Shown here: positions 4,991 through 63,172 of the stretch, in pieces | How the letters are laid out: each line of letters begins with the position of its first letter | Position numbering within the stretch: the stretch's first letter is position 1 | Origin: a virus | Virus record (IMG/VR): IMGVR_UViG_3300035703_000069 | Span: 6,477 to 70,476 of that record | Reading direction: 5' to 3' (one strand) | DNA: 64,000 nucleotides | The notes under the pieces: generated by a model | Seen by the model: the letters and a program-made list of their open reading frames with translations, nothing else | Database searches by the model: none | What the model was told of the DNA's origin: nothing | Made by a program: the position numbers and the translations under genes

Positions 4991-5115
4991 GAGGGGTCGT
5001 GTCGGAATCGAACCGACTTTCCGAGTGCGTTGTCCGCCTGTCCTTACCAATGGACTACCGACCCAGCGACCCCCAGGTTTGAGCTTCCGCGGAGAGGCTG
5101 AGGGGGTGTTGCTGA
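4991..5115 (-). ncRNA. manA-like structured RNA with a tRNA-like 3' domain
   Basis: Minus strand ACCCCCTCAGCCTCTCCGCGGAAGCTCAAACCTGGGGGT, then GGGTCG..GTCCATTGGTAAGGAC..GGCGGACAACGCAC..GTCGGTTCGATTCCGAC.CGACCC. D and T arms are present but the anticodon stem does not pair. Resembles the manA motif as I recall it. Confidence 0.6.
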
Positions 5116-43800: not shown

Positions 43801-44121
43801 ATGTTGGACCATCACATCGATGGGTCCCTCCTCTGCTCGAAACGCTTTGCGAAGTTGCGATTCCGCCAGGGCATCTTGAGCTCCTGGGATGGTTGCTGCG
43901 CGTACTGCGGAGCCCCAGCGGGCACGCTGGATCACGTCAAGGCGAAACGTCGCGGCGGGCCCACAGTGCAGCGCAACTTGGTGGCGGCCTGCGCGACGTG
44001 CAACCGGGCGAAGGGTTCCGAGGAGTGGCTCGTGTGGTTCCGGGCTCAGTGCTTCTGGGAAGCGCACCGGGAAGACGCGATCTACGAATGGATGGGGGCT
44101 GCGAGGATCGAACTCGCCTGA
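43801..44121 (+). CDS. HNH endonuclease (Zn-binding)
   Basis: [31 protein letters not shown]. Confidence 0.88.
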
Positions 44122-44165
44122 GGCCGATTATGAGTCGGCTGCTTTCACCAGATAGCTAAGCCCCC
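44093..44165 (-). tRNA. tRNA with CAT anticodon (likely Ile2, possibly Met)
   Basis: GGGGGCTTAGCTATCTGGTGAAAGCAGCCGACTCATAATCGGCCTCAGGCGAGTTCGATCCTCGCAGCCCCCA forms a full cloverleaf with all four stems pairing. Confidence 0.88.
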
Positions 44166-44432: not shown

Positions 44433-45914
44433 TTAAATGTGAGCGAAGAATCCTGCAGTATTTGGAGTCTCTGGAATGGCGTGACAGGCGAACGCTAGAG
44501 CCATGACGCAATCGTCGTGTGCTCCAGATGCAGCTTCTCGTTGGCCGGATTCTTTCTGTTGGAAAGCGCGAAGCTCATTAGGAATGGCGCCCTCGGGGAA
44601 GATCAGGTCGTCGTGCTCCATCAGGAACAGGATGCGATCGGTAGCAACGATCTTGCTAGGGCGGCTGGTGTTGAAGGTTTCGATAGCATATTTGGGCAAA
44701 GCAGTGGAGAGCGCTTCTGCGATCACAGCGCCCATTGCTTGTTTCTCCACGATTACCCGCTCTGGAAGGTAATCTTCTATGAGGCTTTTCACATGGCGCA
44801 AGCTGTAATCGGTGCTCTTGCCGTTCTCGTGGTACATGCCAACGACCTCGTAGGGCGTTTCGGTGATGTCCAGCACGATCGCTGTGAAGTAATCGTTGCC
44901 ACCGGCGTTGGGGTCGACACCGATCACGTAGGTGCGGCCGACGGAGCCACACTCACGCCAGTGGCCTCGGGTGGCGCGGCGCACCAGTTCCGATGGGAAC
45001 ACCTGGGTGTCGGTCGCGCCGAACGCCAGCTCGTATTCGGAGTCCCATGCGGCCTGGGTCATCCGGCGCGATTCGCGGGTCTTCCGGGCCCACTGGGGGT
45101 CGTGGCCGTAGATCGGGTGCTGTGAGTAGTGGATCGCGACGCGGTTCCAGCTGTCGTTCACCAGGGCCAGGCGGTCGTTGAGCGCTTCGATCTCGCGGCG
45201 GCGGACGTAGTCGTACCAGTCTTCGGGGGTGCCTTGGTGCCAGAGCTGACCGAACCAATCGAGCTCTGTGTCGGGTGTCGAGGTGACGATCACCTTGGCC
45301 GCGTCGCCCACCATGGAGAGCGTGGGCATGGCGCCTCGGTAGATCTCGGCAGCGCCGTCGAGGAAGGCGCCTTCGTCCATGAAGAGGACGGAGCAGCTGG
45401 GGATACCGCGGGCGGCGCGAGGAGAAGCCGGGAGGAAGTACAACGTGCCACGCCCTTCGATGGCGATCTGCGTGTTGGAGTCCGTTAAGTAGCGGATCGC
45501 TTCGCCCTCGATGCTGTTCGCCATGGCGCGCACACGGCGGCCGAGCTCGGAGGCGTCCTGCTGCGTCTTGGAGAAAATCACCGCTGCGAAGCCGCGCTCG
45601 GTGAGCGCCCGGCAGAGCAGGTAGGAGCAGACCGTCTCCGAGGCGCCCATCTGGCGCGACTTGTTGATGATCGTGTTGGGGTGCTTGTTGATGGAGCGCA
45701 CCAGCGCCTCTTGGTACTCGTAAGGGACAAAGGGGGCCACGGTGCCGCTCGTGCGGATCCAGGTGCGCTTGGCGAAGGCGGGCCAGTCCTCCACGCCGGG
45801 GAGCTTCGTCGGGGCGACGGCGGGGTCGAAGTTGGCGGAGCGCGCCTTGCGGCGGGCGAGCTCGAGGCGGAGCTTGTCGGCCCGGCGCTGCAGCTGCGCG
45901 AGGGAGGCGGTCAT
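44433..45914 (-). CDS. terL: Terminase large subunit
   Basis: PYEYQ, KSRQMGAS (Walker A), LFMDE (Walker B), TSTP, IGVDP and HDDCVMALA. Confidence 0.93.
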   Translation of the reverse strand: MTASLAQLQRRADKLRLELARRKARSANFDPAVAPTKLPGVEDWPAFAKRTWIRTSGTVAPFVPYEYQEALVRSINKHPNTIINKSRQMGASETVCSYLLCRALTERGFAAVIFSKTQQDASELGRRVRAMANSIEGEAIRYLTDSNTQIAIEGRGTLYFLPASPRAARGIPSCSVLFMDEGAFLDGAAEIYRGAMPTLSMVGDAAKVIVTSTPDTELDWFGQLWHQGTPEDWYDYVRRREIEALNDRLALVNDSWNRVAIHYSQHPIYGHDPQWARKTRESRRMTQAAWDSEYELAFGATDTQVFPSELVRRATRGHWRECGSVGRTYVIGVDPNAGGNDYFTAIVLDITETPYEVVGMYHENGKSTDYSLRHVKSLIEDYLPERVIVEKQAMGAVIAEALSTALPKYAIETFNTSRPSKIVATDRILFLMEHDDLIFPEGAIPNELRAFQQKESGQREAASGAHDDCVMALAFACHAIPETPNTAGFFAHI

Positions 45915-54585: not shown

Positions 54586-55314
54586 TCAGACGCCGACGAA
54601 CGAAGCGCCGACGCCGTGGGCCTCGACAAAGATGTCGGTTTTGGCGCCGTCGCACAGGCGGCATGTCAGGCATTGAGCCTGGGAGTCGGCGGCGGTGGCG
54701 GGGCAAAGCTTGCCGCTGTAGGGGGTGTCGCCCTGGGGGACGACAGCGAAGGTGCGCCAGCCCATGGCGGAGGCGTCCAGATAGTCCTGGAAGCTGTCGC
54801 ACGAGGCCTGGAACAGGCCAACCGCCCATTGCGCCCATGGTTGGCGCCACTGGTGGCAGTAGCCGGTGTGGCCATCGGCGATGGCGTTGAGGTTACGCAC
54901 TACGGGCGCGTTGAGGATGCCCGGATCGCCATAGGCACCCCAGCGGATGCGGCGACCGCGTAGGTAGCGGGCGTGGAGCGTGGGGTCGTACTCGGGATAC
55001 GAGCCCCGGGCGAAGGCGTGCCAGACGTTGCCTACGCTTTTGCCCACGTCGACATAGCAAGAGCGCACCCACTTGAAGCGCTTGCGCTTGGCGTCCCACA
55101 CTTGGCGACGGCGGTGCGGGCAGTCACCGCAGATCGTTCGGTCGTCGCCGGACGCGATGGCGTCGAGCGGGTGCACATCCGGGCGGAGGATGAAGACCTG
55201 CACCATGTCGCCGGTCTTGGCGTTGGTGCTTTTGAGTGTCGCGATGGCGACATATGGTTGGCCGTCGATTGGCGAGATGCCACGGTCGATCACGAAGCCG
55301 ATTGGCTTACGCAT
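54586..55314 (-). CDS. Cys-rich conserved phage protein (possible Fe-S/Zn binding)
   Basis: NAKTGDMVQ..ICGDCPH..CYV..RWGAYGDP..HTGYCHQW..CPA..CLTCRLC. Confidence 0.7.
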   Translation of the reverse strand: MRKPIGFVIDRGISPIDGQPYVAIATLKSTNAKTGDMVQVFILRPDVHPLDAIASGDDRTICGDCPHRRRQVWDAKRKRFKWVRSCYVDVGKSVGNVWHAFARGSYPEYDPTLHARYLRGRRIRWGAYGDPGILNAPVVRNLNAIADGHTGYCHQWRQPWAQWAVGLFQASCDSFQDYLDASAMGWRTFAVVPQGDTPYSGKLCPATAADSQAQCLTCRLCDGAKTDIFVEAHGVGASFVGV

Positions 55315-55396
55315 TGCTTGTAACTCACAGCGAGAGAGGATGAGGCGCGATGCGCCCAGAGAGCCCACCCGCAAGGGGAAGGGCTCTGGGGGCGAG

Positions 55397-57016
55397 TCAG
55401 GCGTAGGAACGCAGGAGCGACTCAGCGGCTTTGCGCTGGGCCTCGTTAAAGGTGGCGGCGAGCTCTACGTCGCCTGACGTTGAGACGAACTTCCAGCCTT
55501 GCTGGATGCGGTGAGGATCCACTCCTACGATGTTTTCTAGGATCATTCCGTGCACGGAGTCGTCGTAACGCACAAGGGTTACAGAGAACTTGCGCGTGAA
55601 TTGGATGTTGTCGATTTTCATGGCTTAACAGGGAGATAGCTGGGCATAATTGCGGATGCGGGTTTTCATTGGCCGGATACCTCTATGTCGTGCTGGATTG
55701 TTTCAACCCGGTCCATGCAGTTGGACACGTCGCGGTGTACATGGATGTAGTCCGGATCGTTGATAATCAACTGCTCCACCTGATGGAGCAGGAACCACAC
55801 TTCTGTGGCTTTGGTGTGGGGATCCATCAGGCGTCGGGGTGAGGGGTGAGGCCGAGCTTTGCGAGGGTGGCGCCGGTGGTGGCGTATGGGTTCTGTGCAG
55901 AGAGAGGGCCGCAAAACATCCAGCTGTGGAAGGTGGGCGACCACCAGAGGTCGGAGGGATTGACGCCGACCGAGCGGAGTTGTTCGGCCGTCACGGGAGG
56001 GATGGCTCGGTTGGTGAAATGGGTCTTCACTTGTGCGGTTCCTGAATGGGTTAGTAGGTGTTGAAAGCGTCCTCGGGGCACACTTCTTCTATGTAGAAGG
56101 TGCAGTCCGGGTGACGGCGGGTTAGGCCAGCGAGTTCCAGCACGACATCGGCACGGCTGTAGCCCCAGATGCCGGTGGGGGCGGTACGGGTGCCGAGCTC
56201 GTCGGTGATGGTGGCGTAGATCTCGTAGGTCATTGTTTGGCCTCGATGAGGGAGAAGAGTTCCGCCTTGCAGGCGGAGACGGTGAAAGCAACCACGGTGT
56301 GGAGGCCGTACATGCCGTGGAAGGCGCCGCCGGCCTCGGTGATGAGGGCTATGGCTTGAGGGTTGACGCCTGGTTCGCGGGGGACATCGGCGCGCCAGAT
56401 GAATTCCAGGTAACCAGGGCAGGTGGCCCGACGAGATGCAAACTGCATGGGAATCAGTGAAAAGACGTTCAGTTCAGGAATCAGTCAAGCGGGGTGCCAA
56501 ACAACGCCCATGCGAGGGCCGAACTGGAGTTCGTAATCGGGGGACAAATCTGTTACGTCGGCGTGCTCGCCTTTCCAGACAAGGGCGGAGGCGCACCGTT
56601 TGTCGTCGTAACGCCCAACAGTATCTGCCCAATCATGCAGAAGGTCTGCGACCTCTTGCTTATTGAAGGCGTGCTTGACATCAATACCAGTGGGACAGGC
56701 CCAGTTGCCGGAATCGGCGTGGAGCTGAAGTGTGTAGGACATGGCTAGGGTGCGGGGTAACTGGTTCGGGAATCGGTCAGACAAATACGGTGCGATACCA
56801 CTTGCCGGTCCAGACGCACAAGGCGCCTGAGATGTACTGGACATTGCAGAACGCAATGCGGTAATGGGGTGAGCCCCAGTGCCCGTAGGGCACGATGGCC
56901 TGCGCCACCATGCGTTCAATGCGCGCAAGGCGCATGCCGTGGAAACGGCACGACCCGTGGGCCTTGAGATAACGGGCAAACAAAGCGATGGCGTAGTTGC
57001 GATCGGCGAGGTTCAT
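55397..57016 (-). other. Cluster of small early genes (55397..55621, 55666..55827, 56051..56233, 56230..56448, 56485..56742, 56777..57016)
   Basis: Co-oriented short ORFs downstream of the long structured leader. Confidence 0.55.
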
Positions 57017-57024
57017 AGCAGTAC

Positions 57025-57885
57025 TCACTGCGAGAGGATGAAGGTGCAAAGCACCTCAGCCAAACAACCCCCGGACGCAGTGCGCCAGGGGGAATGTTTG
57101 GGGGAGATGGTTTGTGCTCGCCGGCCGATGTGTAGTGCTCGGAGCACTATCCCACGATCGGCAGGGCGAGATGGTTTGTGCGTGCTGAGCAGAGCCGAAT
57201 GCTCTTGGCCACGGTGGGCACGCTGGCCACCGCTGTGGGGTGTCACCCCACTCCGGTTCGCATTATTAGTGCGGTGTCCGGACTTATTCCCATAGGTAAC
57301 GGCAAGACAGTCGCGCCCCCAATCGCCGGGGTTGCGCTGTCAGCTTCACCGCCTACCACGTATCAGCTTCGTAGGACTTACGTCCGCACCTAGGCTGATC
57401 AGCGATTGGATCGTCGCTGTGTGGTTGGCGTCATGCCGCCGCACCTATCTCCCCATCGCTCCCAGGTCGGTCAGGGCCACGGCCGGTCCCCCGGCCTACG
57501 TGTGGCTTGTCCCTCTGGTGTGGCAGACGTTGGGCACCTTCCCGTAGAGCCGCAAGGGCCCGGGGCCGAAGCCAGGGAGACAAGCGATGAACGCTCCAAT
57601 CCCAGGCACAGCCTTATTGTCCGGCCGCTCCGCGGGCAATCGCCGCCGTTAGAGCATCTCGTGCTTACCGCCTCGCTGTGGCATGCCCGGTCGAAACCGG
57701 GCAGAGACCCCGCGTGGTTGTTGTGACTGACACGGGCGCTGTCACCACCCGATCCGTGGCAGTAGCCTTGCATGGCTCCCGCCGATTGTCAACCCTTGCC
57801 TTTCAGCCTGGATTGGGCGCAACGGGTCCGACGGGAGCAGGGCCCCTTAGGGGATGCTCACAGGGCCGGATCCGTTCCGATGCAT
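57025..57885 (-). ncRNA. Candidate large structured non-coding RNA
   Basis: No convincing ORF; many hairpins with minus-strand UUCG/GNRA loops and several long-range complementary pairs (see findings). Confidence 0.6.
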
Positions 57886-58090
57886 CAAGCATTGCACGGC
57901 TTGCCAAGTCTGGCAAGTAACCAGCCTGTGTCTATTGCGTCTCAGGGTGAGATGTGCTGAGGCCCCCTATAGGGATAGAGTCCCGCCTTGTCTCATGCGA
58001 CGCAGAGCAAGACTGAACGTAGTAACGTATATGTCACGTCCATTACTACAACTTTAATGTATATATGTGTTTTGCCGGTTCTGTATATCT

Positions 58091-58501
58091 CTAACCTAGT
58101 CGCGCCTTGTTGATTAAGCCGTTGATCACATCCGCGCTTGTGGCTTGACGGCGTTCGCACTCGGTGCGGAGCCAACCGAGGTTCTCAACAGTCAGTTGTA
58201 CGTCTAGGCGGAGCTTGCGGTTGAGATCACGCTTTTCTTCTCGCTCGCGAGAGGCGGCGGCGCGTGAAGACATCGACTGCCAGCGCTCCAGTTGAGCGGG
58301 GTCCAGGCGGCCGGTGTTGACCGCATGCTTGAGGCGCGCCTGGACGGCCTGACGGGAGATGCCGTGAGCGCGGCCGACGTCCACCCACTTGACGTAGCCA
58401 TCGCGTTCGTAGAAGGCCTGGCACGTTTCGCAGACTTCGTCTAGGGAAAGCTCAGATACGTAGGGCAAAAGGACAGATGCAAGCGTCCCTAAGACTTGCA
58501 C
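58091..58501 (-). CDS. HTH DNA-binding protein
   Basis: WVDVGRAHGISRQAVQARL. Confidence 0.65.
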   Translation of the reverse strand: MQVLGTLASVLLPYVSELSLDEVCETCQAFYERDGYVKWVDVGRAHGISRQAVQARLKHAVNTGRLDPAQLERWQSMSSRAAASREREEKRDLNRKLRLDVQLTVENLGWLRTECERRQATSADVINGLINKARLG

Positions 58502-58516
58502 GAAGTTTGCCTCTCG

Positions 58517-58738
58517 TCAACCCTGCTCTTCCTCGTCGGCGCTGGGGCCGTGGTAGATCCATTCCAGCTGTTGACGGAGATCGGCCTCGAAGCGGTCGTC
58601 GTCGACGTCGTCTGCCTCCTCTGCTTCGTCTCCGGGTATCTCGACCATGATCCGGCTGATCCGGGGGCTCTTCACCAGGAACTCGAGCAGCCACTGCTCA
58701 TACCAGCGGAGGCCCGTGTTGAAGTCGTCAGTCGTCAT
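58517..58738 (-). CDS. Small acidic hypothetical protein
   Basis: MTTDDFNTGLRWYE...; overlaps the sigma factor stop. Confidence 0.55.
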   Translation of the reverse strand: MTTDDFNTGLRWYEQWLLEFLVKSPRISRIMVEIPGDEAEEADDVDDDRFEADLRQQLEWIYHGPSADEEEQG

Positions 58739-59597
58739 GGCCTTGGCGGGCGAGCTGCGTGCGGAGTTTGCGTAGGGCGGTCTGCTGGACTTGGCCGGCG
58801 CGGGAGCGGGTAAAGCCGAGCTCCTCGGAGATCTCGCGCAGAGTGCGGCCCTCAAAGTACCGGCCTCGGACGATGGCTTCTTCAGTGGAGTTCAGCTGGG
58901 CCAATGCGGCGTTGACATCTTCGCGGGCGGCTGTAGCGAGGATGAACTCGTCGGGCTCGGCGCCGTTGGTGCCCTCCGGGTTGGCAAGGATATCGATCAA
59001 GGGGCTGGTGCTGTCAGCGCAGACGGCGTCGAGGGAGCAGCAGACCGTGCTGGTGTGGGTTTGTAAGAGTTGAGCGATGCGCTCGGGACTGACGTCGACG
59101 GCCTCGGCGACTTCGTTGTGGGAGGGAGGTCGGCCAGCATGTGAGGTGAATTCGTAGCTGAAACGCTGCACCCGGGTGATCAGCTCGTGAGTATTGATAG
59201 GGAGACGAATCGTTCGGGCGTGGGTGTGGATGGCGCGGGTGATGGCTTGGCGGATCCACCAGTAGGCATAAGTGCTTACGGCGTATCCACGGGTGGGGTC
59301 GAAGAGCTCGAGGCCGCGGATCAGTCCGAGGTTGCCTTCCTGGATGAGGTCGGCCATGTCGAGGCCACGGTTCTGATAGCGCTTGGCGATGGAGATGACG
59401 AGGCGGAGGTTCGTGACCGTCATCACCTCCATGGAGCGTTGACCGGCGCGGCGGATACCGAGAGGTGCGGCGTCGCGGCCGTCCTCGTGGTGGAGCCAGG
59501 CGTGGATGCGGCGGCAGTGGCGTAGTTGTGCCTCCTTGGAGAGGACGGGGTGCCGACCAACCTGGGTCAGATAGTCGTGTATTTCGGATTGGGACAT
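58728..59597 (-). CDS. Phage-encoded sigma-70 family (RpoD/group 2-like) sigma factor
   Basis: NLRLVISIAKRYQNRGLDMADLIQEGNLGLIRG.E.FDPTRGY..STYAYWWIRQAITRA; region 4 HTH. Confidence 0.93.
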   Translation of the reverse strand: MSQSEIHDYLTQVGRHPVLSKEAQLRHCRRIHAWLHHEDGRDAAPLGIRRAGQRSMEVMTVTNLRLVISIAKRYQNRGLDMADLIQEGNLGLIRGLELFDPTRGYAVSTYAYWWIRQAITRAIHTHARTIRLPINTHELITRVQRFSYEFTSHAGRPPSHNEVAEAVDVSPERIAQLLQTHTSTVCCSLDAVCADSTSPLIDILANPEGTNGAEPDEFILATAAREDVNAALAQLNSTEEAIVRGRYFEGRTLREISEELGFTRSRAGQVQQTALRKLRTQLARQGHDD

Positions 59598-63142: not shown

Positions 63143-63172
63143 AAAAGAAAAGGGCGGGTTGGAAGCCGCCCC
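63143..63172 (-). terminator. Intrinsic terminator
   Basis: Minus strand GGGCGGCTTCCAACCCGCCCTTTTCTTTT. Confidence 0.7.

Follow-up and report, generated by a model that had tools for sequence, protein, structure and literature searches.

The 1,074-nucleotide (nt) gap at positions 57017-58090 of a 64,000-nt stretch of viral DNA (the window, bases 6477-70476 of the 70,476-base record IMGVR_UViG_3300035703_000069, rated complete by CheckV) probably specifies a cis-acting leader for the early genes that follow it. The gap lies between a stop codon at 58091 and an ATG at 57016, in a window whose genes are nearly all on the minus strand. The leader would form part of a modular control region of 1.07 kb, which is a composite of DNA repeats, two tandem promoter-like sites (three in relatives), an exchangeable leader interior, a folded 3′ part and a hairpin module that adjoins the first start codon. 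A sequence-only reading of the same DNA had proposed one large structured non-coding RNA of about 860 nt (57025-57885) heading the early-gene operon. Conserved, covarying minus-strand structure ahead of the early genes is borne out. A single unique 860-nt RNA is not supported, since the 5′ 130 nt of that stretch hold promoter-like site P2 and its last 100 nt are a repeated pre-gene module with no unique RNA end.

The pre-gene module came to light through the 79-amino-acid (aa) first gene, which led to two viral contigs whose alignment revealed a near-invariant block before the ATG. A 28-base pattern taken from this block was found in 45 viral contigs and a 20-base form in 34 metagenome contigs, whereas 185,579 species genomes yielded one contig; on this distribution the module is phage-borne and does not belong to the host. 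The lone species-genome contig (L049, 3.4 kb) is phage-like, was binned with a Myxococcota metagenome-assembled genome and is probably a mis-binned phage fragment. An attachment-site (attP) reading of the module was rejected because it has no counterpart in host genomes.

In the type-1 form that precedes the first gene, helix P3 pairs GAGGUG with CACCUU. Across 48 distinct sequences, 95.1% of the cells in helices P1-P4 can pair, against 41.8-55.1% when the partners are slid. Two-sided changes occur at columns 40:71 (A-U or C-G), 41:70 (G-C or A-U), 110:120 (U-A or A-U) and 49:63, the last usually a U.C mismatch that becomes G-C or U-A in four sequences. Columns 38:73 and 51:61 are invariant G-U pairs, which the opposite strand would read as A.C mismatches. 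The window's copy has as its minimum-energy fold (-44.4 kcal/mol, z -4.5) a rod of P0, P1 and P2, in which helix P0 joins GCACAAACCAUCUC to GAGGUGCUUUG to give about 28 bp; in relative L008 the form with P3 and the form with P0 are nearly equal in energy. The same sequence contains a terminator-like feature, an 11-bp stem with one U.C mismatch followed by UUGUUUGG or UCUUUUGG and preceded by an A-tract, with which the U-tract (5 U in 8) can pair. Two further ideas did not hold in relatives. A pseudoknot between the P2 loop CACUGCG and the CGCAGUG before the ATG is contradicted by most relatives, which read AGCUGUG there and form the P4 hairpin. An upstream TTG at 57049, in frame in the window after GAGGUG, is taken as chance, the linker varying by 1-4 nt so that the frame is lost in relatives.

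A second, diverged copy of the module stands ahead of a downstream gene. The type-1 covariance model R1, which scores 123 bits on its own sequence, finds it at 55304-55413 (33.5 bits, E 6.5e-9); conversely, the type-2 model R2 scores 112.7 bits on this copy and 39.7 bits on the type-1 copy. These are the only two copies in the genome. Both types consist of a long hairpin, a short GC hairpin, a C/U-rich linker and a small hairpin ending at the ATG, and the A-tract/U-tract and the word GAGGUG are limited to type 1. Among 22 distinct relatives of type 2, six of the ten long-hairpin pairs are altered on both sides and 96.6% of cells pair. A type-2 rod P0′-P1′-P2′ is predicted, and across the two types covariation supports P1, P2 and P1′. 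The position of the copy also shows that a 262-aa frame listed from a TTG at 55374 really begins at the ATG at 55314, giving a 242-aa product of phrog_2554.

The module is tied to the start codon and not to any particular gene. It ends 0-3 nt before the start codon whatever gene follows, and in 84 occurrences the ATG lies 30-41 nt past the pattern while the N-termini of the encoded proteins fall into 15 clusters. Most relatives carry a type-2 copy 0.6-2 kb downstream of the type-1 copy. In the 3-kb metagenome contig L059 (538-1265), two type-1 modules flank the 79-aa gene; the downstream one is preceded only by the hairpin block P-1 and has no promoters, so the module works without promoters directly ahead of it.

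Upstream of the module, conservation by blastn falls in steps: 57023-57120 is kept in all relatives, 57164-57247 in about 17 of 30, and 57285-57477 in seven viral and several metagenome loci. The last two steps fall largely within a domain of about 300 nt, closed by a long-range helix of UAGGUGCGGC with GCCGUUACCUA. In this domain 96.0% of cells pair, as against 33.7-41.3% with partners slid, and 12 pairs are altered on both sides, a count reached by none of 500 shuffles. The domain contains as helices two of the hairpins listed earlier (57306-57341 and 57362-57399), and it has invariant G-U pairs (columns 17:36, 48:207 and 53:162, for example) that would be A.C mismatches on the other strand. 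Covariation in relatives, the check called for by the sequence-only reading, has been found as compensatory changes in three separate alignments. A hairpin at 57183-57215 (minus strand) with the conserved loop UUCGGCUC lies ahead of the module in most relatives. Its stem covaries (GAGCA/UGCUC, GGGCA/UGCCU, CCUGGCA/UGCCAGG), and its loop word GGCUCUG recurs in the 3′ strand of the type-2 long hairpin. Between this hairpin and the module, the window carries an additional stem-loop of 50 nt (57118-57167) set between two exact 14-nt direct repeats, GCACAAACCATCTC. The insert folds at -27.6 kcal/mol (z -3.6), is absent from L051 and L060 and present in units of the L005 type, and resembles either a small insertion that duplicated its target or a product of slippage.

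At the other end, an AT-rich box marks the 5′ edge of the region and, with the module, defines a unit of 939-1277 nt that has 29 distinct representatives. The box reads CACATATATACATTAAAGTT in the window and ACATATACATTTTTT(CTAG) in most relatives. Matches to ACATATACATTTTTT with up to four mismatches lie 864-1202 nt 5′ of the conserved core in 42 of the 42 related loci with enough upstream sequence, the scripted match for the window being at -954. By eye, the box could be fitted neither as a promoter with a -35 element nor as a terminator. It is followed by phased GAGAC/GTCTC words. The first 150 nt of the 29 unit representatives hold 79 GAGAC (18.2 per kb) and the remaining 26.2 kb only 9 (0.34 per kb), a 53-fold enrichment, with offsets kept at +50, +70, +92 and +121 and spacings of about 10-11 and 20-22 bp. 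Box and repeats are taken to be signals at the DNA level, such as operators or iterons. The neighbouring 136-aa protein, weakly helix-turn-helix (HTH)-like, is a candidate binder of the GAGAC words.

Aligned unit starts show recurring blocks of TTGAC, 17 nt, TGC and a weak -10 hexamer. The pattern TTG[AC]C-N15/16-TGN-[ACT]ANNNT matches the 29 units 60 times forward and never in reverse, at offsets of about +139, +231/260 and +351/380; three matches occur in 17 units, two in four, one in one and none in seven. Inspection of these seven by eye shows a variant whose spacer is longer, together with TGCTAGGTT. The two strands of the window (128 kb) give four matches, three of them on the minus strand, at 58520, 57916 and 57792. 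The window and L051 share the -35 and -10 elements but have different spacers of equal length, and for P1 this divergence of the spacer alone is the pattern expected of a promoter. Tandem promoter-like sites of host type, co-oriented with the genes, are accordingly recognisable as a sequence pattern, and their activity is predicted. The earlier hairpin CTTGCCA/TTGGCAAG is present, but it corresponds to the -35 element of promoter P1 plus its spacer. The site at 58492-58520 covers position 58501, listed as the GTG start of the 136-aa gene; the true start of that gene is probably further downstream, for example at an in-frame TTG near 58468.

Some related units also carry a boxA-like word. The cyanobacterial boxA is given as GAACCTTGAAAA in the part of the source consulted (PMC8461337). 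With up to three mismatches this word is absent from the window's unit, and no boxA of the rrn type is seen there; the only match close by, at 58070-58081 with three mismatches, lies upstream of the promoters, and matches across the window are at chance (31 found, 28.4 expected). A boxA-like GCACCT(A/T)GACAA or GAACCTTGACAA occurs about +250 from the AT box in 7 of the 29 related units (L003, L004, L026, L032, L033, L006 and L017), and on this pattern is a feature of some subfamilies only.

The gap is non-coding, as the sequence-only reading had held. Codon-position periodicity is 0.01-0.22 over 58180-56920 against a window median of 0.26, which makes this the longest low-periodicity run of the window (the runner-up spans 720 nt). 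Low periodicity, frame-breaking insertions and deletions (indels) relative to L051 and the lack of a protein family for the flanking small genes together carry the conclusion. That the gap conceals a protein gene or a decayed one is most improbable. There are open frames of 100-106 codons (57471-57773 on the minus strand, 57406-57726 on the plus strand) and a minor bump in periodicity (0.17-0.22 at 57700-57341), but a G+C content of 62% would produce frames of such length by chance, they are disrupted by indels of 13 nt and 1 nt relative to L051, and the codon-position pattern of the bump (0.78/0.69/0.57) is wrong when set against that of phage genes (0.71/0.38/0.70). In three relatives (L014, L015 and L025) an open frame of 85-88 codons recurs from 494 to 239 nt upstream of the core and may be a small gene.

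Folding energy divides the stretch into a structured 3′ part and an unremarkable middle. With 20 shuffles only, the whole of 57025-57885 reaches z -5.12 (minus strand) and z -2.84 (plus strand). The 3′ part, 57017-57480, is far better than shuffled sequence, at z -4.85 (minus) and -5.73 (plus) with none of 60 shuffles equal to it, whereas 57481-57757 behaves like its shuffles (z -0.19; 26 of 60 equally good); four coding controls of equal length gave z -2.19 to +0.52. In sliding 150-nt windows the strongest values are -5.3 at 57000-57149 and -3.8 at 57300-57449, with values near zero across 57450-57750. The minus-strand preference suggested earlier is favoured by the invariant G-U pairs, but the folding energies do not separate the strands. 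Rfam 15 matched nothing in 56700-58300 (E up to 10) and, at gathering score, nothing in eight related loci (82.9 kb), its sole match within the window being a tRNA at 44093-44165. The earlier statement that no known family is recognised therefore holds, and the domain at 57185-57480 matches no Rfam family. None of 50,697 phage records matched the gap by blastn.

The middle of the leader is specific to its lineage. The full-length relatives of the gap are the near-identical L076 and the diverged L051 and L060, which are identical to each other there and about 80% identical to the window. Indels of 13 and 6 nt relative to L051 exclude a conserved reading frame in the middle. When the L051 changes are mapped onto the window's own minimum-energy fold of 57480-57885, the pairs touched by them comprise 8 that still pair after a one-sided and 6 after a two-sided change, 12 that break and 11 that fall in gaps; a joint fold of the window and L051 gives six compensatory pairs in the 5′ half, and some local hairpins there may be kept. 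The local hairpins listed earlier do lie where they were placed (57684-57703; 57564-57573; 57374-57385 within 57362-57367/57394-57399; 57306-57310/57337-57341). The complementary long-range words are present as well, but four of the five helices they would form are not kept in L051/L060, the sole diverged full-length relative: 57454/57583, 57506/57574 and 57592/57806 each lose one arm and 57652/57853 gains an A.A mismatch, while 57775/57832 survives with one C-to-U change.

Unit interiors elsewhere form mosaic subfamilies or are replaced by unrelated sequence. The window and L076 are 99% identical over the gap, switch variants at helix P1 inside the module and continue into different first genes; L051 and L060 remain identical as far as P4, after which they too lead into different genes. 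Since these breakpoints fall inside the module, the conserved ends serve as crossover points at least.

Table. Features of the control region and its surroundings; positions are those of the window.
Feature	Positions	Strand	Description
Sigma-70 family factor	58728-59597		among the genes before the gap
Third promoter-like site	58492-58520	-	same type; ahead of the 136-aa HTH-like gene
AT-rich box	58050-58069	-	5′ edge of unit; coordinates read by eye
Phased GAGAC/GTCTC repeats	57925-58049	-	in the window at 57990-57994 and 57939-57943, upstream of promoter P1
Promoter-like site P1	57888-57916	-	TTGCCA, 17 nt, TGC AATGCT; predicted start near 57881
Promoter-like site P2	57764-57792	-	TTGACA, 17 nt, TGC AAGGCT; predicted start near 57757
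Lineage-specific middle	57481-57757	-	z -0.19; blastn conservation only in L051/L060/L076
Multi-helix RNA domain	57185-57480	-	RNAalifold on 8 sequences, 91 pairs
Inserted hairpin	57104-57181	-	stem-loop between direct repeats
Type-1 module	57017-57120	-	long hairpin P1+P2 (extendable by P0), P3, C/U-rich linker, P4, then ATG
First gene after leader	56777-57016	-	79 aa, ATG at 57016, no family
Type-2 module copy	55304-55420	-	between the stop (55397-55399) of a 74-aa gene and the ATG at 55314 of the phrog_2554 gene
Terminase	44433-45914		among the genes after the gap

In the direction of transcription the gap is preceded by genes for ThyX, a dNMP kinase, an HNH/NUMOD4 endonuclease, the sigma-70 family factor and the 136-aa protein, and followed by small genes of no family and then by terminase, portal and tail genes. 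PHROGs and Pfam named, among 20 neighbouring proteins, only the sigma factor, HNH/NUMOD4, ThyX, dNMP kinase, DUF932, a dCTP deaminase-like protein and phrog_2554; none of the 20 was recognisable as a replication or antitermination protein. The match of the 136-aa protein to HTH_AsnC in Pfam is weak (17.4 bits, below cut-off); tblastn with this protein gave no match, and a scan of viral contigs confirmed no relatives. The nearest cultured matches of the terminase are cyanophages of Cylindrospermopsis and Nodularia (30-33% identity) and that of the sigma factor is Synechococcus phage S-CBS3 (38%). Because both proteins resemble those of cyanophages, the host is likely a cyanobacterium. Two tRNA genes lie on the minus strand, Arg-ACG at 4993-5064 and Met-CAT at 44093-44165.

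In the leader reading, RNA polymerase would start at promoters P1 (about 57881) and P2 (about 57757) and produce an untranslated leader of 740-865 nt, on which the terminal module would act in cis. The long irregular hairpin P0+P1+P2, up to about 28 bp, could be an attenuating terminator that has to be read through; alternatively, it could be cut as double-stranded RNA, in the manner of the T7 RNase III sites. In both cases the leader would be separated from the early mRNA. Which form prevails would depend on whether GAGGUG pairs upstream, with CAUCUC, or downstream, with CACCUU/CAUCUC, and the conserved 300-nt domain would modulate the hairpin step or stabilise the leader. As to what the leader controls, attenuation and read-through receive the largest share of our expectation, processing or stabilisation a slightly smaller one, and translation start the smallest.

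Several observations weigh against this reading. The type-1 helices are nearly invariant, with two-sided changes in only 4 of 29 pairs, and helix P0 is wholly invariant and hence beyond a covariation test. The covariation of the 300-nt domain comes from 8 sequences of about three lineages, and the same 8 sequences supplied its structure. In type 2 both the U-tract and GAGGUG are missing, so that termination and a Shine-Dalgarno-like word cannot be the common function of the module family. A generic sigma-70 consensus scan called no promoters, the weak -10 hexamers explaining why it missed P1 and P2; a consensus terminator scan found 18 terminator-like sites where 14.6 were expected and called none at the leader. 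The interiors of seven other units fold at z -0.16 to -6.55, and with such variation the family has no constant large folded RNA. The sole RNA evidence is a 156-nt contig of an aquatic metatranscriptome, identical to 57452-57607 at a depth of 2.2; it is weak evidence and could be DNA carry-over, and the transcript ends are predicted. A second sequencing run, probably of DNA, gave a 269-nt contig at 57933-58194; two of eight listed runs contained small shares, four runs were compared with the region, two gave contigs, and the parts left uncovered are uninformative.

The same elements can be assembled differently. A transcript from promoters P1 and P2 might be ended or cut at the type-1 hairpin and accumulate as a free-standing RNA of about 0.7-0.82 kb, whose 300-nt junction domain would act in trans or, like put RNA, on the polymerase. 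We consider this unlikely, though it accounts for the tandem promoters directly ahead, the stable GC-rich hairpin with a U-rich tail at the 3′ end, the conserved covarying 300-nt domain and a unit length held at 939-1277 nt in 29 representatives despite swapped interiors; the metatranscriptome contig, which falls in the leader when none falls in 2.1 kb of flanking genes, lends it very slight support. Against it, the interior is unconserved across subfamilies and often folds like shuffled sequence, as does the middle of the window's own leader; the U-tract is short and can pair with the A-tract, the 3′ end is a predicted one, and no known large RNA in Rfam is similar. A leader, which the sequence-only reading had offered as its alternative in the form of a processive antitermination leader, fits better than a free RNA. 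In favour of the free RNA, only two convincing minus-strand terminators are called in 20 kb (at 63172 and 49685), so that help with read-through would be useful. On a comparably doubtful proposal, the junction domain would act on the host machinery, for example as a large put-like RNA by which the polymerase of a Rho-less cyanobacterial host becomes resistant to the hairpins met along a one-directional genome of 57 kb; an arms race would then lie behind the swappable interior.

Less probable still is an element acting as DNA, a replication origin and/or recombination linker in which the AT box and repeats would be iterons, the promoters would activate the origin, the ends would be crossovers and the RNA folds would be incidental. 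The AT box followed by enriched, regularly spaced GAGAC words agrees with it, as do the mosaic unit subfamilies and the breakpoints inside the module, and the PeSL cassettes of T4-type phages are, according to the excerpts consulted, a precedent for regulatory cassettes that mediate shuffling (PMC2839356, PMC4122927). Yet three alignments show compensatory changes and conserved G-U pairs, which speak for a minus-strand RNA under selection, no replication genes are recognised beside the region, and a role in recombination can follow from conservation without being its cause. We prefer the cis-acting leader.

Neither the 300-nt domain nor the two-type module family is catalogued in Rfam. Literature searches based on listings and abstract starts found no published description of either, and the abstracts so reached did not deal with leaders of this kind in cyanophages. 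In uncultured freshwater phages, which probably infect cyanobacteria, the first genes are switched on through a strict shared layout: DNA repeats, tandem promoter-like sites, an exchangeable untranslated RNA of about 0.5-0.8 kb and a near-invariant hairpin module fused to any first gene. The conserved ends account for the swapping of early accessory genes between phages, and the layout offers workers on Rho-less hosts a defined set of elements with which to study read-through, RNA processing and translation start.

GOLLD, ROOL, HEARO, OLE and raiA are names of RNA families in Rfam, and the sequence-only reading had compared the stretch with the first two. It shares their size class and phage setting, but it has no Rfam match, lies in a 5′-leader position and lacks a constant multi-domain core in relatives; with a lineage-specific middle, swapped interiors and tying helices that are not conserved, a multi-domain RNA of that kind is unsupported. 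Lambdoid leaders are under read-through control by nut and N, qut and Q (with tR′ and the 6S leader RNA) or the put RNA of HK022, the put RNAs being about 70 nt long with two stem-loops directly after the promoter that act in cis on RNA polymerase. Here too a promoter-proximal RNA element and a U-tailed hairpin that transcription must pass precede the genes, but no N-, Q- or put-like element was identified, and conservation is found at the 3′ end of a much longer leader. The PeSL cassettes, as far as the excerpts of the two papers describe them, join an early promoter to a terminator stem-loop (PMC2839356, PMC4122927). Like them, the module is a short conserved non-coding stem-loop cassette that flanks variable small early genes and has breakpoints at it; unlike them, it contains no promoter-like site (these are found only 0.65-0.9 kb upstream), so that the PeSL junction of promoter and stem-loop is not seen in it, and it ends at the start codon and comes in two structural types. 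In coliphage T7 the early region has tandem promoters A1-A3, an RNase III site (R0.3) just ahead of gene 0.3 and more such sites between the early genes, a site of this type being an irregular double-stranded hairpin of about two helical turns. The present region has no sequence similarity to it, its host is likely a cyanobacterium, RNase III cleavage is here a prediction, and the leader of 740-865 nt with its 300-nt junction domain has no T7 counterpart. In both, tandem host-type promoters head a one-directional train of genes, a long non-coding stretch lies ahead of the first gene, and long irregular hairpins stand just before start codons and recur between the early genes.

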